32,000 nucleotides of DNA. Origin: Nostoc punctiforme PCC 73102. Its GTDB lineage: Bacteria; Cyanobacteriota; Cyanobacteriia; Cyanobacteriales; Nostocaceae. Positions within the stretch are counted from its first letter, which is position 1, and each line of letters opens with the position of its first letter. The notes under the pieces are model-generated. The model was given only the letters and a program-made list of their open reading frames with translations. It was not told the origin of the DNA and ran no database searches. This document shows positions 8,530-32,000 of this stretch, in pieces. Both the position numbers and the translations under genes were made by a program. The stretch spans positions 4,260,001-4,292,000 of the forward strand of contig NC_010628.1 in NCBI RefSeq assembly GCF_000020025.1, read 5' to 3'.

Positions 8530-8548
8530 AATTTCTATTTTTTTTAAT

Positions 8549-8622
8549 CGAACTACAGAGACGCAGAGAACGCGGAGAGAGAAGAAATAGAGATTTTCAC
8601 AAATGATTTAGGACTGCTATAT
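8549..8622 (-). repeat. MITE-like small dispersed repeat (copy A, inverted relative to copy C)
   Basis: The reverse complement reads tatagcagtcctaaatcatttgtgaaaatctctatttcttctctctccgcgttctctgcgtctctgtagttcgatt. It aligns with copy C except for a ~29-nt block present only in C. Confidence 0.75.
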
Positions 8623-8624
8623 TA

Positions 8625-11600
8625 CTATCGTTGATTTCTTTTTTCTCTTCGTCTTTGACCACGAGAAATACTTTGTTTCGCAGAAAGTATTTCATTCTGT
8701 TCAGGGCAGACAATATTAGTAAGGGAGTTTATGGTTGGTGCTTCGTAAATACTCTCTATAGGAATGTCAAGGTCTAATTTTTTGTTTAACAAAGAAATAG
8801 CTTGAAGGGCTGTTAGCGAATCACCTCCTAACTCAAAAAAATTGTCGTGGATGTTAACGTTGTCAAAACCAAAAAGTTCTTGCCAAATGTCAGCAATAGT
8901 TTTCTCAATCTTTTTACGGGAAGCGGCATAAGTATTTCCCAAAGCATTAGGTATTTGCTCAATCAGGTTTTCAAACAACTCATCAGCAGACTTTACATTT
9001 GAAGTAACCGAGAGCGATTCAGTAGCTAAGTTTAAAGATGAGCCAGTCAAAGTTTGATTGGCGCTCGTCTGTCCGCTATTTTTTGAAGTCTGCTCAGATG
9101 TAAAAAATCCCCCTGCTTGCATTTCAACTACGCTTTCTTTGACCGCAGAAATTACTTGTTCAACGTCTTTATCAGTGTGAGCTGTAGATAGATAAAGAGT
9201 GCGTCCTTCCCAGACATAAATCCCTTTTGCAAGCAAGTGATAGAAAAATAAATTACCAAGTTGAGTCTGGCAATTAAAACGGAAGAGAGAACCAAAATTA
9301 ACGACTCGAATTGGTACTTGCTTTTGTTCAAAGTAACTATTGAGAGTCTCGGCTAATTGGGTTGTCCGTTGATTTAACTCCTCCTGAAGTTTGGAACCAC
9401 TGTTCTTAATGTGATTGAGTGTAGCCCAGGCGACACCCATGATGAGAGGATGCTTGAAAAAAGTACCAGCGAAAAAAGTTGTTTTCACCTGGGGGTAAGA
9501 CTCATCTCCATAGTTCCACATACCTCCGTCTAATGCATCCATAAAAACAGCTTTGCCAGCCACTACCCCAATAGGGATACCAGCAGCAACAGCTTTACCA
9601 TAAGTTGTGATATCTGCTTGAATACCCCATAAAGCCTGAACGCCACCTGGGTGCATCCGAAAGCCAGTAACCACCTCATCGAAAATTAAAACAGTTCCAG
9701 TTTCTTGAGTTAATTGTCTGAGTTGAAATAGAAACTCTTTAGGCTGAAAATCTGGGCGACTGCTTTGTATCGGCTCAACTAAAATTGCTGCTAAGTTATG
9801 AGCATTGTCTTTAAGAATATTGAGAGATTCGGGAGTACCATACTCCAGCACCATCACATCCTCAGCTAAGGATGATGGAATACCTGAAGTCATCGGGACA
9901 GAACGTAGCGTTCCGTCGTTGGTTCTTACTCCTTTGACCAAAACTCCATCAGAACCACCGTGATAAGAACCAGCAAATAAAGCAATTTTTGAACGTCCTG
10001 TAACAGAACGTGCTATGCGTACAGCCGCCATCACTGCTTCTGTGCCATCGTTACAAAAAGCTGTCCGTTCCGCACCGGTTAACTCACAAATTAACTCAGC
10101 TAATTGACCTGCAAAACGCGATTGTGGGCCGTTTAGTATACCTTGCTTGCTTTGCTCTTGGATGGCTGCGATCGCAAAAGATGGCGAATGACCAAATAAA
10201 AGCGTACCAAACCCCATTGAAATGTCTACATATTCGTTGCCATCGACATCCCAGAGTCTAGCACCCTCTCCACGCTCTGCATGGATTGGATATATCATCT
10301 CCTTGATAAAGGGAAAGAACCCTGATACTGCCCTGCTATTGGCATGACAAGAACGATAAGCTTGGGTAAGCCTTTTAGATTCTTGGGTACGCTTGACAAA
10401 ATGTGCAATTAAAGAGTCTAGATGTCTCTGCTGGCGGGGACTCAACATCATCGATTCTTTCTCGATCTGTTGGGAAGCAGCTTTGGGTGTAGGATTAATT
10501 TTCCGGTCTTTGATTTGTTGCTCAGACTCTGCCTTAGTAAATGTAGACTGATTTCCACTAAACGCAGAGCCATTGGTTGAGGTTTGAGCAATTTGCCCAT
10601 CTTGATGAATAGCTCCCAATGAAGGCAAAACTTCTCTGGCTAAACTTCCCTGTGGTAATAAGTCTACCAGTTTAGACATAACCTGAAGATGCTGTGAAAT
10701 TATCTGTTCAATGGCTGTATTTGCTATAGGTTGGTTAACGATTTGCGTATCTGGAACTTTGATTGAGTTGGTTATGATATCTTCTGGTTGAGAAACAAGA
10801 ATTTCATTTTTGGGCGATAGATTGTCATCATTAGCTAAGATAGGTTCAATCCAGTATCTTTTTCGCTCAAAAGGATACGTTGGCAAGGGAATACGATGAC
10901 GTTCTTCATCGGCATAAAATTCTGACCAATCCACATTTATTCCCTCCAGCCAGAGTCTACCCAATGTATTTAGTAAAAACGCCACATCTGATTGTTGGTT
11001 CTGTGGATGTCTTAGTGAAGAAAGAATTACCTGCTGGGCCGCTTTTTGCTTGTTAGCTAAGGTACTTAATGTTCGCCCTGGGCCAACCTCTAAAAGAATT
11101 CGCTTTGGCTGTTGCAGTAATTCGGCGATCGCTTCGCTAAAACGTACTGTTTGGCGTAAATGCCTTGCCCAGTATTTCGGATCTGTTGCTTGTGCTGGGG
11201 TTATCCAAGTGCCGGTGACGTTAGATACAAAAGGAATTTTTGGAGAATTAAGGCTAATTTTGCTAACCTGTTCCTGGAATGGTAACAGAATCGAGTCCAT
11301 CATTGAGGAATGAAAAGCATGGGAAGTATGTAGACGATGACAGTCTACACCTTGGTCAATCAATCGTTTTTGTAAATCATCAACCGCTTCCTCCAATCCA
11401 GAAACTACGCACATATCTGGTGCATTGATTGCAGCCAAAGAGAGTTTTTTTCCTAGCATGGGTTGGATTTTTTTCTCTGGTAGTGAAACAGCCATCATTG
11501 TTCCCGATGGAAGCTGCTGCATCAGTTGTCCTCGGTTGGCTACGAGTATCAATGCTTCTTCTAAGGAGAACACACCAGCAATGCAGGCTGCGACATATTC

Positions 11601-13505
11601 TCCAATGCTGTGACCAATCATTGCATTCGGACGTACACCCCAAGCCATCCACAACTGAGCCAAGGCGTACTCAACTACAAATACTGCGCTTTGGGTAATA
11701 TGAGTTTGTTGTAGTTGCTGTGTTAACGCTTCCGTTTGCTGATGCGGATACAATAATGTCCGCAGGTCTAACTTCAGATAAGATTTGAGAAATTCACAAC
11801 AGTAGTCAACCTGTTTGCGGAAAATTATCTCAGTCTCGTATAATTCTCTACCCATATTCACATACTGGGTACCCTGTCCGGGGAACATAAATGCAATCTG
11901 TTGCCCCGATGGTTCGGTGAATTTGGTGAAAACCCTTTCTGAAACAGGCGTTTCTAAAACTGTGACTGCATCGTTAAGGTTTTGACAAACTAATATTCGG
12001 CGATCGCTAAAACCCCTTCGACCTACCCCCAGAGTATAAGCAATATCGGCTAAGTTGAGTTCAAGATGTTGTTTGAGGTGATTAGCCAAATTTGCTGTAG
12101 CTGTTTCTAATGCAGATTTCGTTTTCGCAGAAATAACTAACAAATGATATTTCCTCCCTTGTCTCCTCTGCCTCCCCTGCTCCCACACCGGGGCTTCTTC
12201 AAGAATCACATGGGCATTAGTCCCACCAATCCCAAAGGAACTAACCCCCGCACGGCGAGGAGTACCATTTGACTTCCATTCTGAAAGCTTGTCGTTAACA
12301 TAAAAGGGGCTGTTAGCAAAATCAATCTGGGGATTGGGTTGCTCAAAGTGTAAGCTGGGCGGTATCTGCTGGTGTTTGAGTGCGAGAACAGTCTTGATTA
12401 AACCAGCAACACCAGCCGCAGCATCTAAGTGTCCGATATTGGTTTTTACTGAAGCGATCGCACAAAAGTTTTTTTTATCTGTGGGGCGAAAAGCTTGTGT
12501 CAGCGAGGCGATTTCAATCGGATCGCCTAAAACTGTACCGGTGCCATGAGTCTCTACATAACTAATCGTCTCAGATTCAACTCTAGCCATTGCCAGTGCC
12601 TCGGCAATTACTTTTGCTTGCCCATCTACACTAGGAGCCGTAAAACCAACTTTTAAAGACCCATCATTATTAATAGCTGAACCTTTAATCACAGCATGAA
12701 TACAATCTCCATCAGCTAAAGCATCTTCTAACCGCTTGAGAACTACAATACCCACCCCGTTGCCGCTAATAATTCCTTGGGCTTTGGCATCAAAAGCCCG
12801 GCAGTGTCCATCGGGAGACATAATTCCCCCTTGTTGATAGCGATAACCAGTTTTGTGCGGCACTTGGATCGAAACACCACCTGCCAAAGCGATGTCACTT
12901 TCGCCATTTAGTAAGCTTTGGCAAGCTAAATGAACTGCAACTAATGAAGTCGAACAGGCGGTTTGGACGTTAAGGCTTGGCCCCTTAAGATTTAATTTAT
13001 ATGAGACATAAGTAGGCAGAAAATTTGGACTATTGCCAATGGAAATTCGGTAACTGCCGACTGATTCTATAATTTTTGGTTGTGTATAAAGGTTTGTCAA
13101 AAAGTAAGTATTTAAACTGGCACCAGCATAAACACCAATCCGACCTGCATATATTTCAGAATTGTAGCCAGCGCTTTCCAGAGCTTCCCAAGCACACTCC
13201 AGGAATAAACGGTGTTGTGGATCGGTGATTTGGGCTTCTTTCGCAGAAAAATCAAAAAATGAAGCATCAAATAACTCAATATCTTCTAATACAGATCCTG
13301 CTTTTACATACTGAGGTTGACTCAGCGTCGCTGGATCAATCCTAGAAGACAACAATTCTTCATCACTGAAAAAAGAAATTGACTCAACACCATCTCGGAG
13401 ATTTTGCCAAAACTGTTCAATATTTTTAGCTCTAGGAAAACGACCATTCATCCCAACGATCGCTATTTCATCGAGGCTATCAAATGCATTTGGTTGATTC
13501 ATCAT
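8625..13505 (-). CDS. type I PKS with embedded aminotransferase, KS-AT-AMT-CP
   Basis: 1626 aa. KS nt ~12192-13472 (TACSTSL, ETHGTGT, KTNIGHL). AT nt ~11001-11894 (GHSIGE, HAFH). Low-complexity linker. Class-III PLP aminotransferase (GSA-aminomutase-like) nt ~9120-10445 with TTYGKAVAAG (Lys1304). Carrier protein nt ~8706-8918 (ELGGDS, Ser1563). AGGAGG lies 5 nt before the ATG and the gap to the upstream stop is 9 nt. Confidence 0.95.
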   Translation of the reverse strand: MMNQPNAFDSLDEIAIVGMNGRFPRAKNIEQFWQNLRDGVESISFFSDEELLSSRIDPATLSQPQYVKAGSVLEDIELFDASFFDFSAKEAQITDPQHRLFLECAWEALESAGYNSEIYAGRIGVYAGASLNTYFLTNLYTQPKIIESVGSYRISIGNSPNFLPTYVSYKLNLKGPSLNVQTACSTSLVAVHLACQSLLNGESDIALAGGVSIQVPHKTGYRYQQGGIMSPDGHCRAFDAKAQGIISGNGVGIVVLKRLEDALADGDCIHAVIKGSAINNDGSLKVGFTAPSVDGQAKVIAEALAMARVESETISYVETHGTGTVLGDPIEIASLTQAFRPTDKKNFCAIASVKTNIGHLDAAAGVAGLIKTVLALKHQQIPPSLHFEQPNPQIDFANSPFYVNDKLSEWKSNGTPRRAGVSSFGIGGTNAHVILEEAPVWEQGRQRRQGRKYHLLVISAKTKSALETATANLANHLKQHLELNLADIAYTLGVGRRGFSDRRILVCQNLNDAVTVLETPVSERVFTKFTEPSGQQIAFMFPGQGTQYVNMGRELYETEIIFRKQVDYCCEFLKSYLKLDLRTLLYPHQQTEALTQQLQQTHITQSAVFVVEYALAQLWMAWGVRPNAMIGHSIGEYVAACIAGVFSLEEALILVANRGQLMQQLPSGTMMAVSLPEKKIQPMLGKKLSLAAINAPDMCVVSGLEEAVDDLQKRLIDQGVDCHRLHTSHAFHSSMMDSILLPFQEQVSKISLNSPKIPFVSNVTGTWITPAQATDPKYWARHLRQTVRFSEAIAELLQQPKRILLEVGPGRTLSTLANKQKAAQQVILSSLRHPQNQQSDVAFLLNTLGRLWLEGINVDWSEFYADEERHRIPLPTYPFERKRYWIEPILANDDNLSPKNEILVSQPEDIITNSIKVPDTQIVNQPIANTAIEQIISQHLQVMSKLVDLLPQGSLAREVLPSLGAIHQDGQIAQTSTNGSAFSGNQSTFTKAESEQQIKDRKINPTPKAASQQIEKESMMLSPRQQRHLDSLIAHFVKRTQESKRLTQAYRSCHANSRAVSGFFPFIKEMIYPIHAERGEGARLWDVDGNEYVDISMGFGTLLFGHSPSFAIAAIQEQSKQGILNGPQSRFAGQLAELICELTGAERTAFCNDGTEAVMAAVRIARSVTGRSKIALFAGSYHGGSDGVLVKGVRTNDGTLRSVPMTSGIPSSLAEDVMVLEYGTPESLNILKDNAHNLAAILVEPIQSSRPDFQPKEFLFQLRQLTQETGTVLIFDEVVTGFRMHPGGVQALWGIQADITTYGKAVAAGIPIGVVAGKAVFMDALDGGMWNYGDESYPQVKTTFFAGTFFKHPLIMGVAWATLNHIKNSGSKLQEELNQRTTQLAETLNSYFEQKQVPIRVVNFGSLFRFNCQTQLGNLFFYHLLAKGIYVWEGRTLYLSTAHTDKDVEQVISAVKESVVEMQAGGFFTSEQTSKNSGQTSANQTLTGSSLNLATESLSVTSNVKSADELFENLIEQIPNALGNTYAASRKKIEKTIADIWQELFGFDNVNIHDNFFELGGDSLTALQAISLLNKKLDLDIPIESIYEAPTINSLTNIVCPEQNEILSAKQSISRGQRRREKRNQR
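9120..10445 (-). other. PLP-dependent aminotransferase (AMT) domain within the KS-AT-AMT-CP protein
   Basis: The region from LWDVDGNEYVDISMGFG to YGKAVAAGIPIG to VWEGRTLYLSTAHT is co-linear with the AMT at 29241-30575. A hand-aligned stretch gave roughly 85% nt identity. Confidence 0.85.
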
Positions 13506-16857: not shown

Positions 16858-16934
16858 TTCCGTAATAATGCTTAATGGTGTATGAGGCAATACGGTTCAG
16901 TTAAGGCTAAAACTCTTTAACAAAGTCAATTTTT

Positions 16935-16990
16935 TAACGTAGACGCGGAGCGGCTTGCCGCAGGCTACCGCAGAGGAAACAGAGAGAAGA
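16935..16990 (-). repeat. repeat copy B2 (inverted; matches the GC-rich half of copy C)
   Basis: The reverse complement cttctctctgtttcctctgcggtagcctgcggcaagccgctccgcgtctacgtta aligns with copy C 31250-31312, with a few mismatches and one short indel. Confidence 0.75.
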
Positions 16991-16999
16991 AAAAAATGC

Positions 17000-18031
17000 T
17001 TAACCCAAGGGTATTGGTGTATGAGCTTCAGCCATTCCGACTAAAATTTTTCTGGGAGGGACAAATGGCTGACGGGCATGGATTGATAACATATTGTCCA
17101 GCATCAATACATGTCCTTTTTCCCAAGAAAAAGTGACCATTTCCTGTTGATAAGCTGCTCGTAGTTCAGCTAAGACTGATGGCTCAATTGCAGAACCATC
17201 CCCATAATATGTGTTAGTTGGTAGGTCTTCTTCTGGCAAATTTGTCAATAATGAATCGCGGATTGTTGATTCTAATGTGGAGACATGGAAAAAAGTTGCG
17301 TGATTGAACCAGACCATTTCACCTGTTTGAGGATGTTTGAGAACAACTGGCCCAACTTGACGAGTTCTTAAGCGATTATCTGCTTTCCATTCAACCTCAA
17401 TTCCATTGATTTTGCAGTACTCTTCTACCTTAGTTTTGTCTGTTGTTTGAAATACAGTTTGCCAAGGAAGACCAAATCCATCACCAAAGTTACGCATATA
17501 CATGACTTTCTTTTGAATGAAGCGATCGCGTATATCTGGATGAATCCGCTCAAACACTTTCCGACAACTACCAATTGGAGTTTCTCCTCCCTGCGCTGCT
17601 GGACTCATACAAAAAAAGAAGATTTTCAACGGAAAGGTAGGAGAGTAAGCGTGTTCATTGTGAGGAAAGATACTTTGCTCGGCAGGATAGTCTGTTGAAG
17701 TATAAATTCTCCCACCTACTTGAGTTCGTGGAGATGCCCGATAACGATACTCCATCGCCTCTCCACAAATCGCAGCGATGATTTGCTCAAATTCTTCTAT
17801 TGACTTGACTTTAAAATCCCGAAACAGTATTGCTCCATATTTTAATAATTCGGCTTTCAAAAATTCCCGATTATTCTTTGCCCAGTTTTGCAGATCCACT
17901 CCCTTCACATTGGGCTTAATCACCAAAGGAAAATTATTTCCTGGCTGGAGAAACTCAGTTTTTATTAAGTCTTCTGGAGATATATTGACAGCTTTACGCT
18001 TCACAGAACCTAGAGATTCAATTTTTGTCAT
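17000..18031 (-). CDS. SyrP/TauD-like Fe(II)/2-oxoglutarate dioxygenase (probable hydroxylase of a carrier-bound amino acid)
   Basis: 343 aa. GAILFRDF motif, HxE triad (FPHNEHAY, His124/Glu126), distal LSIHARQPF. The ATG at 18029-18031 overlaps the stop of the upstream C-domain gene by 14 nt. Confidence 0.85.
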   Translation of the reverse strand: MTKIESLGSVKRKAVNISPEDLIKTEFLQPGNNFPLVIKPNVKGVDLQNWAKNNREFLKAELLKYGAILFRDFKVKSIEEFEQIIAAICGEAMEYRYRASPRTQVGGRIYTSTDYPAEQSIFPHNEHAYSPTFPLKIFFFCMSPAAQGGETPIGSCRKVFERIHPDIRDRFIQKKVMYMRNFGDGFGLPWQTVFQTTDKTKVEEYCKINGIEVEWKADNRLRTRQVGPVVLKHPQTGEMVWFNHATFFHVSTLESTIRDSLLTNLPEEDLPTNTYYGDGSAIEPSVLAELRAAYQQEMVTFSWEKGHVLMLDNMLSIHARQPFVPPRKILVGMAEAHTPIPLG

Positions 18032-25895: not shown

Positions 25896-28800
25896 TTATT
25901 CCTTAACTCCTAGACTTTTAGTAATTGACTTTAGTTTTTGCAGACGTTTTTGCTGTTGAGCTTTTCCATCTTTAATCTTCTCAATTTTTACATCAGTTTT
26001 CTGAAGAGATAATGTGTGATTTTTGATTGTGGTAAAGCATTCTGCTAAAGAGCTTATGGTTGGATATCTAAACATATCGATCATCGATAAATCTGTTTGA
26101 AATATTTCACGTAACTTGCTATGAACCTTAACCATAAGTAATGAATGACCACCCAGTTCAAAGAAGTTGTCGTGAATGCCTATCTTCTCGATATTGAGAG
26201 CCTTTTGCCAAATAGTAGCGATAGTTTGTTCCATCTCAGTTTGGGGCATGACATAAGCATCTGACAAATTTGGGCGGATAGTTTCTGGTGCAGGTAGCGA
26301 TCGCCGATCCAACTTGCCGTTGGGCGTTAGCGGCAGAGCAGGGAGGAAGATAAAGGCAGAAGGCACCATATATTCTGGTAGCTTTTCTTTCAGGAATCGC
26401 TGTAAATCACCGATGGTAACAGCCTGTTTATCATCCAGGACTACATAGCCTACTAAACGCTTCTCACCATGACTTTCTTCAACAGCCTGGACTATTACTT
26501 CTCGGACTGCCTGATGTTTTCTCAGTGCCGTCTCAATCTCTCCTAACTCAATGCGGAAACCTCGAATTTTAACTTGGTGGTCAATGCGTCCTAAGTACTC
26601 AAGTTCGCCATTGGGCAAGTAACGGGCCAGATCGCCAGATTTGTATAAATAAGCATCAGTTACTTCGCTAAAGGGGTTGACAATGAACCGTTCAGCAGTT
26701 AATTCTGGGCGATTGAGATAACCACGAGTTACACCCGCACCACCAATGTAAAGTTCACCAGCAACCCCAATTGGAACTGGTTGCCGTTGTGAATCTAATA
26801 AGTATATTTGCAAGTCAGGAATACGATGCCCAATTAGGCTACCATTTCTTTGATTTAAATCCGCTATATTTATGGGGCGATAGGTTACGTGTACAGTCGT
26901 TTCTGTAATACCGTACATATTGACTAGTTGTGAGCCATCGCCGTGGCGCTCAAACCAAGGCTGCAAGCTATCAAGTTCCAGGGTCTCACCCCCAAAAATC
27001 ACAAGACGCAGAGCCAGCGTTCCAGTTTTACCTGCCGCTTCCTCCTCTGCATTCATTAGTTGCCGGAAGGCCGATGGAGTTTGATTGAGTACCGTTACCT
27101 GCTGAGTGCATAACAAGTTGTAGAAAGCCTCTGGCGACCTGCTAATCCAGTAAGGAACAACTACCAGCCGTCCCCCATAGAGAAGAGATCCCCAAATTTC
27201 CCAAACTGAGAAGTCAAATCCATAAGAGTGAAAATTTGTCCACACATCGCGATCGCTAAAGTTAAACCATGACTGTGTGGCGGTAAAGAGCCGAATAACG
27301 TTCTGATGATTGACTAAAACGCCTTTGGGTTTACCAGTAGAGCCGGAGGTGTAAATTACATAAGCTAAATTATTTGTAGTTACCTCCCTAACCGGATTAT
27401 CTACCCTTTCTTGACACCAAGCCTCACTGTTTTGGTTTAAGCAAACCACCTGCGCCTGATGCTCAGGTAAACCTTCGAGAAATTTATCCTCGGTTAACAA
27501 TACCGAAACCTGGGCATCTGACAGCATGAAGGCTAGACGCTCCTTGGGATAGGTAGGATCTAGAGGGACGTAAGCCCCACCAGCTTTGAGAATTCCCAAG
27601 ATACTCACAACCATATCTATTGAGCGATCCATAAAAATTCCCACCAGTACTTCTGGGCCTACGCCGAGCGAATTGCTACGCGACAGCTTCGCTGAACGCA
27701 AATAATGCGCCAGCTGATTAGCTCGCTGGTTCAGTTCCCGGTATGTTAACTGTTGGTCTTCAAAGATTACGGCAATGGCATCGGGCGATCGCTCCACTTG
27801 AACTTCAAATAACTCATGGATACAATACTCCCCAGAATAGTCAGTTTGAGTATTATTCCATTCCACCAACAACTGTTGTTGTTCTGTTTTCGTCAACACA
27901 GGCAATTGTGCAAGGGGCTGCTCTGGATTAGCAACAATACCTTCTAGTAAAGTTACGTAATGTTTGCTCCAACGCTGAATTGTCTGGCAGTCAAATAGAT
28001 CGGTATTATATTCCAGTTCTATTAGTAGTTCATTATCTGTCTGAAAAATATTTAAATTAAGATCAAACTTAGTAGCACTGGTAGAATTTTTAGCAACCTC
28101 AAATTCTTGCTTTAACGACTTTGACTCAAATTGAGCTTTGTCCAGATTAAACCCGGTGGTAAAGAGAGGGGTACGGCTAGGATCTCGCGGTAACTTTAAA
28201 TTTTCAATTAGTTTAATAAATGGATAAATTTGATACTCGTAAGCATCTAGCAATACCTGCTGGATTGCGCTCAAATACTCTGTGAATCCTGGGTTGCCAA
28301 TAACTTGGCTACGTATAGGCAATAGATTAACACAGTGACCAACAAGAGATTCTCCTGCGATCGCAGATTGTCCGGCTGAAGCAATACCAACAACGATATC
28401 TTGTTGATTCGTCAATCTTTGCAATAAAGTTATAAATGCTGTTAAAAGAATCGTAAATAAAGTATAACCACGTTGTCCGCTTAAATTTTTTAGAGCGTTA
28501 TACAATGTTGGATCAAGGATGAGATTTTCTCGCGCACCAGTGTAAGAAAAGATTGGTGGTCGAGGACGGTCAGTTGGCAATTCCAACACAGGCACTGAAC
28601 TCGAAAATTGACCTAACCAATAAGCTTCAGCTTTTGCCATCTCTGGACTCTGCTGCCTTTCTACTTGCCACAGAGCATACTCACTCCATTTCATCGGTTG
28701 CAGAAGTTGACTAGCAATACCTTGGCACTGTGCTGAATAAATTGCTGCTAGTTCTTGTAACAAAATACCAATCGACCAACCATCAGCAACAATGTGATGA

Positions 28801-31205
28801 TTCGTCAGAACCACAAGATGATAATTTTCCTCCAGCTTAACTATGTGGCAGCCTAGTAATGGCCCTTTTTCCAGATGGAAAATTTGTTGAGCTTCTCGTG
28901 CTAACAATTCCGATAGCTGTGCTTCTCGTTGACTTTTATCTAAAGTTGAAAAGTCGCTCACAGGAATGTCTATAGTTAAAGTGGAATGAATCAATTGCTC
29001 ATCCCCCTCTGGGCTAAAAGTAGTTCGCAGCGCTTCGTGACGATTGATAATTTCCTGAACCGCTTTACGTACTGCCAATAAATTGCAAGTTCCCCGTAGG
29101 TGGATAGTTCTCGATTCGTTATAGGCGCGGGAAACCTCATCTCCCATTTGTGCTAAAAACCACAATTCTTTTTGTGCTGCCGTCAGAGGAATTTTGAGCG
29201 TTGTTAAAATTGGGGCAGATGGTAATAATTCCCCTTGTTGCATTTCTACTACGCTTTCTTTAACTGCTCGAATTATATGTTCAATATCTGCATCAGTATG
29301 AGCCGTAGAAAGATAAAAGGTGCGTCCTTCCCAGACATAAACGCCTTTTTCTAGCAGATGGTAGAAAAACAACTGATTAAACTTGAGAGGAGATGAGCCT
29401 ATAAAACGAAACAACGAACCAAAATGAACTACTTGAATAGGAACTTGTCTTTTTTCGAAGTAACTATTAATAGTTTGGGCTAATTTCGCTGTTTTTTGAG
29501 ATAACTCTTGCTGTAACTTCGGGCCACTATTCTTAATATGGTTGAGTGCAGCCCAAGCCGCAGCCATTACCAAAGGATGTTTGAAAAAAGTACCCGCAAA
29601 CATGGTGGTTTCTGCTTGAGGATAAGATTCATCTCCATAGTTCCACATCCCACCATCAAGCGTATCCATCAAAGCTGCTTTGCCAGCTATCACCCCAATT
29701 GGCATCCCAGCAGCAACAGTTTTCCCATAAGTAGTCAAATCTGCTTGAATATCCCATAATCCTTGAATTCCACCTGGGTGCATCCGAAAGCCGGTAATCA
29801 CTTCATCAAAAATTAATACGGTTCCTGTTGCTTGAGTTAGTTGTCTGAGCTGGAGCAAAAACTCTTTGGGTTGCAAATCTGGCCGACTACTTTGTATCGG
29901 CTCTACCAATACTGCTGCCAGTTCGTGAGCATGAGTTTTGAGAATCTCTAAGGATTCAGGTTGGCCATAGTCGAGTACAATAACATCATCAGCAATGTAA
30001 GATGGAATACCTATAGCTCTAGGGATAGAACGCCGCGTTCCTTCGCTAGTTGTGACTCCTCGCACCAATATCCCATCATAGATACCGTGATAAGAGCCAG
30101 TAAATAAAGCAATCTTGGAGCGTCCTGTAGTAGCGCGTGCTAGGCGTATTGCTCCCATCACGGCTTCTGAACCATCGTTACAAAAAGCTGCCCGTTCTGC
30201 GCCTGTTAGTTGACAAATTAACTCCGCAACCTGACCGGCAAGACGCGATTGTGGGCCGTGCAGTATACCTTGGTTTATTTGTTCTTGAATCGCATCAATG
30301 ACAAACGAAGGCGAATGACCAAATAAAAGCGCACCAAACCCCATAGAAATGTCTACGTATTCGTTGCCATCAACATCCCAAAGCGTGGCTCCCTCTCCAC
30401 GCTGTCCGTGGATGGGATATAACATCTCTTTAATTGAGGGCAGGAACCCTGTTACCGCCCTGCTATTAGCATGGTAAGAACGGTAAGTTTGCGAGAGTCG
30501 CTTAGATTCTGAAGTACGCTTAACAAAACGTGCAATTAAATAATCTAAATGTTTTTGTTGATGAGGAGTTAACAGAGTCTTTGATTCTGAGTCAAGCTGT
30601 TGGATATTTGCCGGAATTTGAGGCTCAATTATTTGGTTTATGAGTTGTTGATTAAACTTAGCTTGAATCGATGATGGACTTTCTTGAAAACCAGATTTAT
30701 CCTGAACAGGAGCAGATGGTATTGCTGCTTGTAAAGGTAATCTTTTCTTAGATGAACCTGCTTTTTGCAAAATATCTAGCTGTTTAGACATTAGCTGAAG
30801 CTGCTGTTCTATTACCTGTTCCAGTATTGTACCTGTTACAGATTTTTCATTTTCTTGCTCAAACTCTTGTGTATCTGAAGCCTTAACAGCTAGCCTTGAT
30901 TCCTTGATATCTTCTGGAGGTATTTCTTGCACTATGTGCGTTACTAAGGCATGAATTGTTGATAAATCTTCAAGTAATAAACGAAAAGGAATATTAATAC
31001 TTAACTGTTTTTGAATGGCACGGTTTATTTGCAGCAATATCAGAGAGTCAACACCCATTTCTAGAAAACGAGTATGAATATCTATTGCAGATGACTTGAC
31101 TCCCAATGACTCACTAACAATGTCCTTGAGGCTTAATACTAATTTCTGATATTGCAAATCTTTCTTCATAATATTTTTCAAAAACTTATTTATTACTGAA
31201 TGCAT
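25896..31205 (-). CDS. hybrid PKS/NRPS: ACP-AMT-C-A(Thr)-PCP
   Basis: 1769 aa. ACP nt ~30921-31163 (EMGVDS, Ser54). PLP aminotransferase nt ~29241-30575 (TTYGKTVAAG, Lys495). C nt ~27906-29192 (NHHIVADGWSIG). A nt ~26301-27833 (YTSGSTGKPKG, hand-extracted code DFWNIGMVHK). PCP nt ~26031-26243 (ELGGHS, Ser1688). Confidence 0.95.
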   Translation of the reverse strand: MHSVINKFLKNIMKKDLQYQKLVLSLKDIVSESLGVKSSAIDIHTRFLEMGVDSLILLQINRAIQKQLSINIPFRLLLEDLSTIHALVTHIVQEIPPEDIKESRLAVKASDTQEFEQENEKSVTGTILEQVIEQQLQLMSKQLDILQKAGSSKKRLPLQAAIPSAPVQDKSGFQESPSSIQAKFNQQLINQIIEPQIPANIQQLDSESKTLLTPHQQKHLDYLIARFVKRTSESKRLSQTYRSYHANSRAVTGFLPSIKEMLYPIHGQRGEGATLWDVDGNEYVDISMGFGALLFGHSPSFVIDAIQEQINQGILHGPQSRLAGQVAELICQLTGAERAAFCNDGSEAVMGAIRLARATTGRSKIALFTGSYHGIYDGILVRGVTTSEGTRRSIPRAIGIPSYIADDVIVLDYGQPESLEILKTHAHELAAVLVEPIQSSRPDLQPKEFLLQLRQLTQATGTVLIFDEVITGFRMHPGGIQGLWDIQADLTTYGKTVAAGMPIGVIAGKAALMDTLDGGMWNYGDESYPQAETTMFAGTFFKHPLVMAAAWAALNHIKNSGPKLQQELSQKTAKLAQTINSYFEKRQVPIQVVHFGSLFRFIGSSPLKFNQLFFYHLLEKGVYVWEGRTFYLSTAHTDADIEHIIRAVKESVVEMQQGELLPSAPILTTLKIPLTAAQKELWFLAQMGDEVSRAYNESRTIHLRGTCNLLAVRKAVQEIINRHEALRTTFSPEGDEQLIHSTLTIDIPVSDFSTLDKSQREAQLSELLAREAQQIFHLEKGPLLGCHIVKLEENYHLVVLTNHHIVADGWSIGILLQELAAIYSAQCQGIASQLLQPMKWSEYALWQVERQQSPEMAKAEAYWLGQFSSSVPVLELPTDRPRPPIFSYTGARENLILDPTLYNALKNLSGQRGYTLFTILLTAFITLLQRLTNQQDIVVGIASAGQSAIAGESLVGHCVNLLPIRSQVIGNPGFTEYLSAIQQVLLDAYEYQIYPFIKLIENLKLPRDPSRTPLFTTGFNLDKAQFESKSLKQEFEVAKNSTSATKFDLNLNIFQTDNELLIELEYNTDLFDCQTIQRWSKHYVTLLEGIVANPEQPLAQLPVLTKTEQQQLLVEWNNTQTDYSGEYCIHELFEVQVERSPDAIAVIFEDQQLTYRELNQRANQLAHYLRSAKLSRSNSLGVGPEVLVGIFMDRSIDMVVSILGILKAGGAYVPLDPTYPKERLAFMLSDAQVSVLLTEDKFLEGLPEHQAQVVCLNQNSEAWCQERVDNPVREVTTNNLAYVIYTSGSTGKPKGVLVNHQNVIRLFTATQSWFNFSDRDVWTNFHSYGFDFSVWEIWGSLLYGGRLVVVPYWISRSPEAFYNLLCTQQVTVLNQTPSAFRQLMNAEEEAAGKTGTLALRLVIFGGETLELDSLQPWFERHGDGSQLVNMYGITETTVHVTYRPINIADLNQRNGSLIGHRIPDLQIYLLDSQRQPVPIGVAGELYIGGAGVTRGYLNRPELTAERFIVNPFSEVTDAYLYKSGDLARYLPNGELEYLGRIDHQVKIRGFRIELGEIETALRKHQAVREVIVQAVEESHGEKRLVGYVVLDDKQAVTIGDLQRFLKEKLPEYMVPSAFIFLPALPLTPNGKLDRRSLPAPETIRPNLSDAYVMPQTEMEQTIATIWQKALNIEKIGIHDNFFELGGHSLLMVKVHSKLREIFQTDLSMIDMFRYPTISSLAECFTTIKNHTLSLQKTDVKIEKIKDGKAQQQKRLQKLKSITKSLGVKE
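27669..27692 (-). repeat. 24-nt in-frame, hairpin-capable insertion in the Thr A domain
   Basis: The sense strand gcgaagctgtcgcgtagcaattcg encodes AKLSRSNS, interrupting the usual HYLxxLGVxxE spacing (compare HYLQRLGVEKE in the other A domain). The flanks give an agcgaa/ttcgct 6-bp stem. GC-rich relative to its surroundings. Confidence 0.45.
29241..30575 (-). other. PLP-dependent aminotransferase (AMT) domain within the ACP-AMT-C-A-PCP protein
   Basis: The region from LWDVDGNEYVDISMGFG to YGKTVAAGMPIG to VWEGRTFYLSTAHT. Class-III aminotransferase fold with the PLP lysine retained. Confidence 0.85.
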
Positions 31206-31210
31206 TTATA

Positions 31211-31312
31211 TATAGCAGTTCTAAATCATTCGTGAAACCTCTCGTTATTCTTCTCTCTGTGTACTCTGCGTCTCTGCGGTAGCCTGCGGCAAGGCGCTCT
31301 GCGTCTACGTTA
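31211..31312 (+). repeat. MITE-like small dispersed repeat, longest copy (copy C)
   Basis: tatagcagttctaaatcattcgtgaaacctctcgttattcttctctctgtgtactctgcgtctctgcggtagcctgcggcaaggcgctctgcgtctacgtta. It is related to 8549-8622 (inverted), 16790-16857 (direct) and 16935-16990 (inverted). Confidence 0.75.
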
Positions 31313-31344
31313 AAAAATAATTTCTATAAATAAGATAATATTGC

Positions 31345-31360
31345 TATAGCAGTCCTAAAT
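31345..31360 (+). repeat. 16-nt direct repeat of the copy-C terminus
   Basis: tatagcagtcctaaat matches tatagcagttctaaat at 31211-31226 in 15 of 16 positions. The two bracket the GC-rich core. Confidence 0.6.
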
Positions 31361-31413
31361 AAATTTATAAAATATTTGCTTTTTTCTTGATGCTATTAGC
31401 ATATATATAATTG

Positions 31414-32000
31414 CTACATATCTTTTTCTAAGATATCTAACTGCTGAAACATAACAGCAATTTGTTTGTTGACGATCTTTTGAAGAAAATTATCATATTT
31501 TTCACCTCTACTACCTAGTTTAAGGATGTTGTTTTGATGAGAATCAAAAAATAAATCTTGTGATTCATCTTCCAGATGATTAATCTGTTTATTCTGTAAT
31601 TGATTCAACTCATTAACTTTAGTAGACTCAACCCAGTATCTTTTACGCTCAAATGGGTAAGTTGGTAAAGGTAGCCGATAACGTTTTTCATGAGCATACA
31701 AACTTGACCAATCAACTTGTATACCGTACAACCACAAATTTCCCAAAGTATTCAGCAAGAATGCAACATCAGATTGTTGATTATGAGGATGACCTATGGA
31801 GCAAAGCACCAATTGTCCCTGCGACTGTTGCTTAGTTAAAGTACTTAAAGTGCAACCAAACCCAACTTCTAAAAAAATCCGATTTGGCTGTTTGCACAAT
31901 TCACTAATGCCATCGGCAAAGCGTACTGATGACCGCAAATGTTTAACCCAATAACTGTTATCTGTTGCTTCTTTTGTAGTAATCCAAGTGCCAGTTACGT
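31414..32000 (-). CDS. type I PKS, 3' end only (C-terminal part of AT plus post-AT linker); 5' end lies outside the window
   Basis: The reading frame stays open to nt 32000 and translates as VTGTWITTKEATDNSYWVKHLRSSVRFADG..., so the track start at 31938 is a TTG artefact. It is homologous to the AT C-termini of the other PKS genes (SDVAFLLNTLGNLWL, LPTYPFERKRYW). It ends 208 nt upstream of the gene that starts with the ACP. Confidence 0.85.
   Translation of the reverse strand, partial: VTGTWITTKEATDNSYWVKHLRSSVRFADGISELCKQPNRIFLEVGFGCTLSTLTKQQSQGQLVLCSIGHPHNQQSDVAFLLNTLGNLWLYGIQVDWSSLYAHEKRYRLPLPTYPFERKRYWVESTKVNELNQLQNKQINHLEDESQDLFFDSHQNNILKLGSRGEKYDNFLQKIVNKQIAVMFQQLDILEKDM

Follow-up and report, generated by a model that had tools for sequence, protein, structure and literature searches.

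What holds together a polyketide synthase (PKS) module whose domains are divided between two proteins? This question is raised by a stretch of 32,000 nucleotides from Nostoc punctiforme PCC 73102 (contig NC_010628.1, positions 4,260,001 to 4,292,000), the full length of which we refer to as the window. Here, the ketosynthase (KS) and acyltransferase (AT) domains of one module lie on one protein, and its acyl carrier protein (ACP) domain lies at the start of the next, where it is followed by an aminotransferase (AMT) domain. A short amphipathic helix motif stands at the extreme C-terminus of the KS-AT protein and again between the ACP and AMT domains of its partner, and a third copy precedes the AMT domain of another synthase in the window. 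On balance, and with modest confidence, we favour the reading that this is a self-associating docking or oligomerisation helix which tethers the KS-AT subunit to the ACP-AMT subunit.

All the large open reading frames (ORFs) of the window are on the minus strand and form one cluster that combines PKS with nonribosomal peptide synthetase (NRPS) genes. The upstream gene of the split module (31414-32000, minus strand) runs past the window end and was completed from identical public contigs (full protein: L001:5809-8715); it encodes a protein of 968 aa with KS and AT domains only, and upstream of it are genes for a methyltransferase and for a module of condensation (C), adenylation (A) and peptidyl carrier protein (PCP) domains. 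Its 3' end within the window encodes the C-terminal part of the AT, the post-AT linker motif YPFERKRYW (31633-31659, minus strand), which marks the end of the KS-AT didomain and is kept in all homologs, and then a disordered linker and the C-terminal helix, up to the stop codon. The tail comprises the 72 aa after YPFERKRYW and ends in NFLQKIVNKQIAVMFQQLDILEKDM (nt 31417-31491), with the stop codon TAG at 31414-31416. As modelled by AlphaFold2 (AF2), the amphipathic helix that we propose as a docking helix (...KYDNFLQKIVNKQIAVMFQQLDILEKDM) extends over 31417-31500 on the minus strand, directly before the stop. A first-pass annotation had described the tail end and its stop as we find them, its range of 31417-31485 being 6 nt short on the N-terminal side, which is trivial.

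An intergenic gap of 208 nt (31206-31413) separates this gene from that of the partner subunit (25896-31205, minus strand), a protein of 1769 aa with the order ACP-helix-AMT-C-A-PCP, its domains assigned by Pfam. The ACP of the split module is N-terminal (aa ~18-98; 30912-31154, minus strand), matches Pfam PP-binding/ACP_SdgA_C (aa 28-98), aligns to the ACP of MycA in 6KFU and is modelled at a pLDDT (the per-residue confidence score of AF2) of 81-90. It is followed by the internal helix (aa 127-151, ILEQVIEQQLQLMSKQLDILQKAGS; 30753-30827, minus strand), in which ILEQVIEQQLQLMSKQLDIL occupies aa 127-146 (nt 30768-30827), and then by a class-III AMT domain of the MycA type (29250-30575, minus strand; Pfam Aminotran_3; E = 1e-148 to MycA in PDB 6KFM/6KFU). 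This domain has the N-terminal extension LTPxQQxxLxxLI..RT..SK, and its alignment to 6KFM/6KFU starts at query residue 104-107. The ACP-AMT gene has two possible starts, ATG at 31205 (1769 aa) or Met13 at 31169 (1757 aa); the 1757-aa form is the database entry P0283, and with it the gap would be 244 nt.

The third copy lies in a gene for a KS-AT-helix-AMT-carrier protein of 1626 aa (8625-13505, minus strand; ORF and Pfam domains), directly between AT and AMT (10656-10715, minus strand). It is a divergent subtype of the helix, AIEQIISQHLQVMSKLVDLL, and is near-invariant in 22 of 22 KS-AT-AMT-carrier homologs, which come from several Nostocales genera; this domain order is widespread in the Nostocales. 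The order is unusual in that no ACP stands between AT and AMT and the sole carrier, which is PCP-like (FFELGGDSL), follows the AMT; this carrier is 34% identical to the PCP and 32% identical to the ACP of the ACP-AMT subunit. The divergent subtype (SKLVDLL) is also seen after the ACP in P0122, a KS-AT-ACP-helix-AMT protein ending in a thioesterase (TE) domain, and is therefore not confined to the AT-adjacent position. Domain calls and translations confirm the two layouts that the first-pass annotation had read from the window, AT-helix-stop followed by ACP-helix-AMT in one place and AT-helix-AMT in the other; its coordinates for the internal and the divergent copy (30768-30827 and 10656-10715) are exact, and its gap length is right.

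BLASTP aligns the tail helix with the internal helix over 21 positions, 9 identical and 18 positive (E = 5e-5, for a small search space). We also built a hidden Markov model (HMM) of the motif from the AMT linkers of other organisms and scanned all six frames of the 32 kb with it. Its three best matches are exactly the three sites, at 16.0 bits (E 3e-6; the internal helix), 4.2 bits (E 0.015) and 0.4 bits (E 0.24). The divergent third copy is supported instead by a 44%-identical alignment of the two pre-AMT linkers and by its presence in all 22 orthologs. Judged from these comparisons of sequence, the similarity of the helices within the window is more than chance.

Is the motif a peculiarity of this cluster? 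We searched 1.84 billion cluster representatives exhaustively with the helix and AMT as query, and took the top 150 matches to the Nostoc query as a representative set. The motif HMM used on these proteins was seeded from the tails and then iterated on the linkers, and copies of the motif are also visible by eye. The consensus, xLERI(M/V)xQQLQ(L/V)MSQQLE(L/V)LR, is amphipathic, covers about 20-25 residues and contains two QQLxxMx heptads. By the available sequences, the motif appears to be nearly universal upstream of AMT domains: as the first-pass annotation had proposed to check, we looked for it in other AMT-containing synthases, and at least 120 of 149 representatives from many phyla carry it between carrier and AMT, most of the remainder having by eye a variant with an inserted heptad. 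For most of the top 150, the search alignments already begin at the helix. The motif is found also in loci of Paenibacillus, Myxococcales, Acidobacteria, Chitinophaga, Pedobacter, Lysobacteraceae and Bdellovibrio, and a divergent version is present in the ACP-AMT linker of a Bacillus MycA-like protein. Between the carrier and the motif are 30-110 aa, a further 45-110 aa lead to the conserved start of the AMT, and the sequence on either side of the motif is of low complexity. A Pfam scan (E up to 10) of the 72-aa tail and of both pre-AMT linkers returned no family, docking families included, and on the 194-aa C-terminal fragment of the KS-AT protein the sole match was Acyl_transf_1.

The distribution of the motif by domain context distinguishes split from fused modules. 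Among the 259 carrier-to-AMT junctions in a pooled set of about 380 proteins, 239 matched the motif HMM, as did 36 of 45 junctions from AT to C-terminus and three of nine from N-terminus to AMT. Two further matches were found, one in an AT-to-C junction and one between a carrier and a C-terminus; the latter is a Calothrix ACP-helix-oxygenase ORF, the oxygenase being outside the domain set used. Of the misses at AT-to-C-terminus junctions, nine in all, five show the helix on inspection by eye and the other four are fragments or other architectures; the iterated HMM also misses the divergent KS-AT-AMT subtype and some Brasilonema tails, both of which we confirmed by eye. None of the 146 AT-to-carrier junctions of fused modules in the pooled set matched the motif HMM. 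Therefore, the extra copy appears exactly upon module split. More generally in this set, an AT-proximal copy occurs only where the polypeptide ends or where an AMT or C domain directly follows.

Division of the module between AT and ACP is not peculiar to Nostoc. Sixty-seven of the 150 representative AMT synthases begin with a carrier domain at a consistent distance from the N-terminus, and the AT//ACP split is therefore common and not a product of truncated gene calls. For eight carrier-first proteins we recovered the neighbouring genes (those of the window, Anabaenopsis circularis, Nostoc carneum, Tolypothrix, Microcoleus, a JGI genome, and metagenome-assembled genomes (MAGs) of Acidobacteria and Blastocatellia). 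In seven of the eight gene pairs, all but the Blastocatellia one, a KS-AT protein with a C-terminal copy of the helix, 936-968 aa long, is followed by a carrier-helix-AMT protein. A comparison of fused and split versions in orthologous clusters, as suggested in the first-pass annotation, has thus recovered the same split with a KS-AT protein that ends in the helix. The intergenic gaps of split pairs range from 31 to 208 nt. In the Blastocatellia MAG (L089:4668-12594), a KS-AT-helix-C protein, with a full condensation domain, precedes an ACP-helix-AMT-C protein, and the two genes overlap by 8 nt. In a deltaproteobacterial MAG, the genes for an AT-helix-stop and a carrier-helix-AMT protein are not arranged colinearly. 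The locus of Calothrix sp. HK-06 (L009:2-12291) has three consecutive subunits with one helix each: A-CP-KS-AT-helix (CP, carrier protein), ACP-helix-luciferase-like monooxygenase, and helix-AMT-C-A-CP-C. The second and third of these ORFs are in the same frame, with a single stop codon between them. In the downstream subunits, the N-terminus before the ACP (the first ~17 residues) shows no conservation, and a classical docking partner at that end is therefore not evident.

Across 34 KS-AT-only proteins, we compared the conservation of the tail helix and its surroundings by mean pairwise identity. This is 71% for the post-AT region, falls to 29% in the first 20 linker residues and to 16% in the 20 aa before the helix, and rises to 55% in the helix itself. 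The linker before the tail helix varies from 30 to 74 aa, and the stop codon follows 0-12 aa past the helix, mostly 2-3. A Q, an M, a second Q and an L are invariant in the tail-helix alignment, and nothing is conserved between the post-AT W and the helix. The first-pass annotation had allowed that the upstream tail might prove to be unrelated, poorly conserved sequence in orthologs; with 55% identity in the helix against 16% before it, this is not the case. The pattern of identities clearly points to purifying selection on the tail helix.

The sequence of the helix has a hydrophobic stripe at i, i+3/4 and i+7 across its two QQLxxMx heptads, spans only about three heptads and is predicted to be helical. 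Two single chains were modelled with AF2, AT with the tail (468 aa) and ACP-helix-AMT. In the former, which covers the last 468 aa of the protein, the tail forms a single helix over residues 441-467 (pLDDT 55-67), and the linker before it is disordered (pLDDT 27-43, with about 45 aa below 40). The latter has a confident ACP, a helix at 127-151 (pLDDT 41-62), about 60 residues below 50 and then a confident AMT; both segments that flank the internal helix, 99-126 and 150-210, have pLDDT below 50. In these models, the tail and internal copies of the window look like isolated, tethered helices that are predicted not to pack in cis.

Partner helices resemble each other beyond the common motif in some lineages. 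In the Blastocatellia pair, a rare three-heptad variant is present both in the KS-AT-side helix, LLQQLDLMNRQFDIMARQLSLFN, and in the internal helix of the partner, VAQQLDVMNRQFDIMARQLSLLN; no other three-heptad variant was returned when the named homologs were searched by regex. The two Blastocatellia helices are identical at 19 of 23 residues, with unrelated flanks, and only 7 of those 19 residues have identical codons; the match has therefore been kept by selection at the protein level. Recent gene conversion as the cause of the likeness is ruled out for this pair by the same codon count, and within the window it is not indicated (40/72 nt identical between tail and internal helix). Mean net charge is -2.0 for tail helices versus -0.2 for the internal helices of split proteins. 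Reciprocal charges are seen in some lineages, with KK in the tail against EQ in the internal helix of Nostoc, and EE against KR in Microcoleus.

How might such a helix act? We suggest that it is a free-standing association helix, tethered by disordered linkers upstream of AMT domains embedded in PKS/NRPS proteins. In fused modules, the helices would pair along the dimer axis between a dimeric KS-AT and a dimeric AMT. When a module is split between AT and ACP, the KS-AT subunit would retain or acquire its own copy of the helix at its extreme C-terminus, and this copy would join the same bundle. The result may be a small bundle on the dimer axis, to which the KS-AT dimer and the ACP-AMT dimer would give two helices each; the bundle would dock one subunit onto the other and bring the KS and AT of the first protein within reach of the ACP on the second. 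For Calothrix, this would make a single helical hub at which three subunits come together. The reading of the motif as a docking or dimerisation helix, which the first-pass annotation had offered, is well supported by these comparative data; from them we infer that the helix mediates subunit association and that it does so helix to helix, a physical pairing that would follow from this reading.

This proposal needs to be weighed cautiously, as several points tell against it. The helix is found also in fused modules, so docking cannot be its sole role, and a length of three heptads is small for a coiled coil to be stable. The signals from charge and covariation are weak, drawn from about six independent lineages and uncorrected for phylogeny. 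The counts by the motif HMM are not fully independent, given that it was seeded from tails, and the representative set, being the best matches to the Nostoc query, is not a random sample. It is also conceivable, if unlikely, that every helix binds a common receptor surface, most likely the AMT dimer, with the KS-AT tail docking on the AMT of its partner. No domain other than the AMT is found with the helix in every case, whether in cis or in the partner, and a common receptor would also account for the likeness of partner helices. Against this, the AMT subunit of split systems keeps its cis helix, so that the copies would compete; Calothrix has three helices for one AMT, one of them before an oxygenase; and AF2 leaves the cis helix unpacked on the AMT, with pLDDT 41-62 in the helix and below 50 in its flanks. 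We give still less credence to the idea that the helix serves only for homodimerisation within each subunit and that the subunits are joined otherwise, for example by contacts of the ACP with KS and AT. PKS modules do use separate dimerisation elements, and such a role would fit the presence of the helix in fused modules that have no need for docking (57 of 75 by HMM). KS domains already dimerise, however, and the absence of a post-AT helix from all 146 fused KS-AT-ACP modules means that KS-AT does not need one; moreover, the copy is present only in split modules, and partner helices share lineage-specific variants.

It is highly improbable, in our assessment, that the C-terminal helix is a non-functional vestige or recombination scar, derived from a broken AT-helix-AMT gene or from insertion of a repeat. 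The gap of the window does contain a short dispersed repeat (31211-31360, neither strand assigned), with a GC-rich core at 31264-31309 and the 16-nt direct repeat TATAGCAGTYCTAAAT at 31211 and 31345. Related copies lie in window gaps at ~8545-8621 and 16930-17000, in both orientations; the copies have a GC-rich core like CTCTGCGTCTCTGCGGTAGCCTGCGGCAAGSCGCTCYGCGTCTACG beside an A/T run, and the 16-mer is present in two of the three. The window copies show no convincing terminal inverted repeat, and the fold of the gap is no better than that of shuffles (z = 0.83). No RNA family was found by an Rfam scan of the whole window, and a promoter and terminator scan of the gap was negative for the coding strand. 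The orthologous loci lack the 16-mer. As the cause of the split, the element was rejected: the same split, with gaps of 31-159 nt, occurs in other genera and phyla without the 16-nt flanking repeat. Thus, the MITE-like (miniature inverted-repeat transposable element) repeat noted at first pass is a genuine dispersed repeat, and irrelevant to the split. The origin of the tail as a scar is opposed also by the helix itself, whose conservation across genera and phyla far exceeds that of its flanks and whose distance from the stop is always 0-12 aa, and by the ancestor that it would require, as a fused AT-helix-ACP-helix-AMT protein was not found among the 146 AT-to-carrier junctions.

A fused homolog at a syntenic position speaks in part for recombination. 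P0020 (L093:10001-14896) is a KS-AT-helix-AMT-carrier protein that follows the same methyltransferase and C-A-PCP genes as the split KS-AT, and its helix region, IISQQLDVLQK-IMSQQLDLLRQ, resembles two helices joined in tandem. The KS-AT of P0020 is 78.5% identical to the split KS-AT versus 68.8% to the KS-AT-AMT gene of the window, and its AMT is 81% identical to that of the ACP-AMT subunit (25896-31205) versus 78% to that of the KS-AT-AMT gene. P0020 has the look of a natural recombinant of the split and KS-AT-AMT types. Fused forms have thus probably arisen through recombination at the helix, as a side effect rather than the cause of the tail. The scar proposed in the first-pass annotation is therefore unsupported for the tail, in view of its purifying selection and of the missing fused ancestor, and recombination at the helix gains side support from P0020.

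How does the proposed docking helix compare with known systems? In class 1 (DEBS-type) and class 2 (curacin-type) docking, short terminal helices join dimeric subunits via four- or eight-helix bundles around a coiled coil (PMC9113145). The helix described here resembles these cis-AT docking domains in being a short terminal helix at a subunit end. They differ in that class 1 and class 2 domains sit at intermodular ACP//KS junctions and join a C-terminus to an N-terminus, whereas this junction is intramodular, AT//ACP, with the upstream element after the AT; the presumed partner, a paralogous copy of the motif, moreover sits inside its protein, between ACP and AMT. It does not belong with class 1 of the DEBS2/3 type, as the junction lies within one module and there is no Pfam docking-domain match, nor with class 2 of the CurG/H type, in which a C-terminal pair of helices behind an ACP meets an N-terminal pair in front of a KS; here a single C-terminal helix is predicted after the AT, and the downstream subunit starts with an ACP. 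Trans-AT split-module docking by four-helix bundles (VirA/VirFG, macrolactin MlnD/MlnE) employs elements of ~25 residues at intramodular junctions (PMC9113145). The intramodular split-module junction is a point of likeness, here and in all orthologs examined. Those bundles, however, lie at KS//KR, KS//DH or DH//KR junctions (KR, ketoreductase; DH, dehydratase) with two helices per terminus; here the system is cis-AT (Acyl_transf_1) and has one helix per subunit, the partner is internal (aa 127-151), and the motif occurs also in unsplit proteins. The helix thus fails the defining features of the docking classes in PMC9113145, known here by the descriptions of that review. The same review, from 2021, describes cis-AT junctions as predominantly of the ACP//KS kind; aminotransferase domains and an AT//ACP class are both absent from it (PMC9113145).

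Two related synthases are relevant to the helix. MycA (mycosubtilin/iturin; 6KFM/6KFR/6KFU) has a homologous AMT, at the E-value given above, and ACP; it differs in being fused, as A-CP-KS-AT-ACP-AMT-C... The linker is absent from its solved AMT constructs, which begin downstream of it, and from 6KFU, where ACP and AMT are joined directly, and the solved structures therefore do not show the helix. The puwainaphycin synthetase PuwE has a PKS module followed by aminotransferase and monooxygenase, and produces beta-amino acyl units (PMC4219810). At the Calothrix HK-06 locus this arrangement is present in split form, PuwE being described as one polypeptide, and PMC4219810 mentions no linker helix or docking element for PuwE. 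We found no description of the helix in the accessible literature, which excludes most subscription journals, and a prior description is possible. With less than even confidence, we advance the idea that the motif represents a previously unrecognised docking class present in several phyla, in which a self-associating heptad helix that stands before tailoring domains, the AMT and in Calothrix a luciferase-like oxygenase, would have been copied onto the ends of subunits that must join, so that KS-AT, ACP-tailoring and AMT subunits would gather around one hub at the intramodular AT//ACP junction of cis-AT PKS-NRPS hybrids.

Elsewhere in the window, the segment 17000-19595 encodes a stand-alone condensation-domain protein (525 aa) whose gene has a 14-nt overlap with the start of a TauD-family dioxygenase gene. 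The terminal KS-AT-KR-ACP-TE gene is followed by genes for a second TauD-like protein, a methyltransferase and an aldo/keto reductase.

Docking domains decide how megasynthase subunits assemble, and they are key tools for the engineering of assembly lines. In this survey, the helix is the only conserved candidate for holding together the halves of AT//ACP-split modules, and a conserved element can now be flagged as missing from the only solved ACP-AMT constructs. If the helix is indeed a homotypic docking element, it would provide a minimal, portable tag of ~25 aa for splitting or fusing modules that form beta-amino acids, and, for genome mining, a simple rule by which orphan KS-AT and ACP-AMT genes could be paired from their sequence. 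It would also account for how, in Nostoc punctiforme and in the other organisms with divided modules, an ACP on one protein can serve the KS and AT on another.

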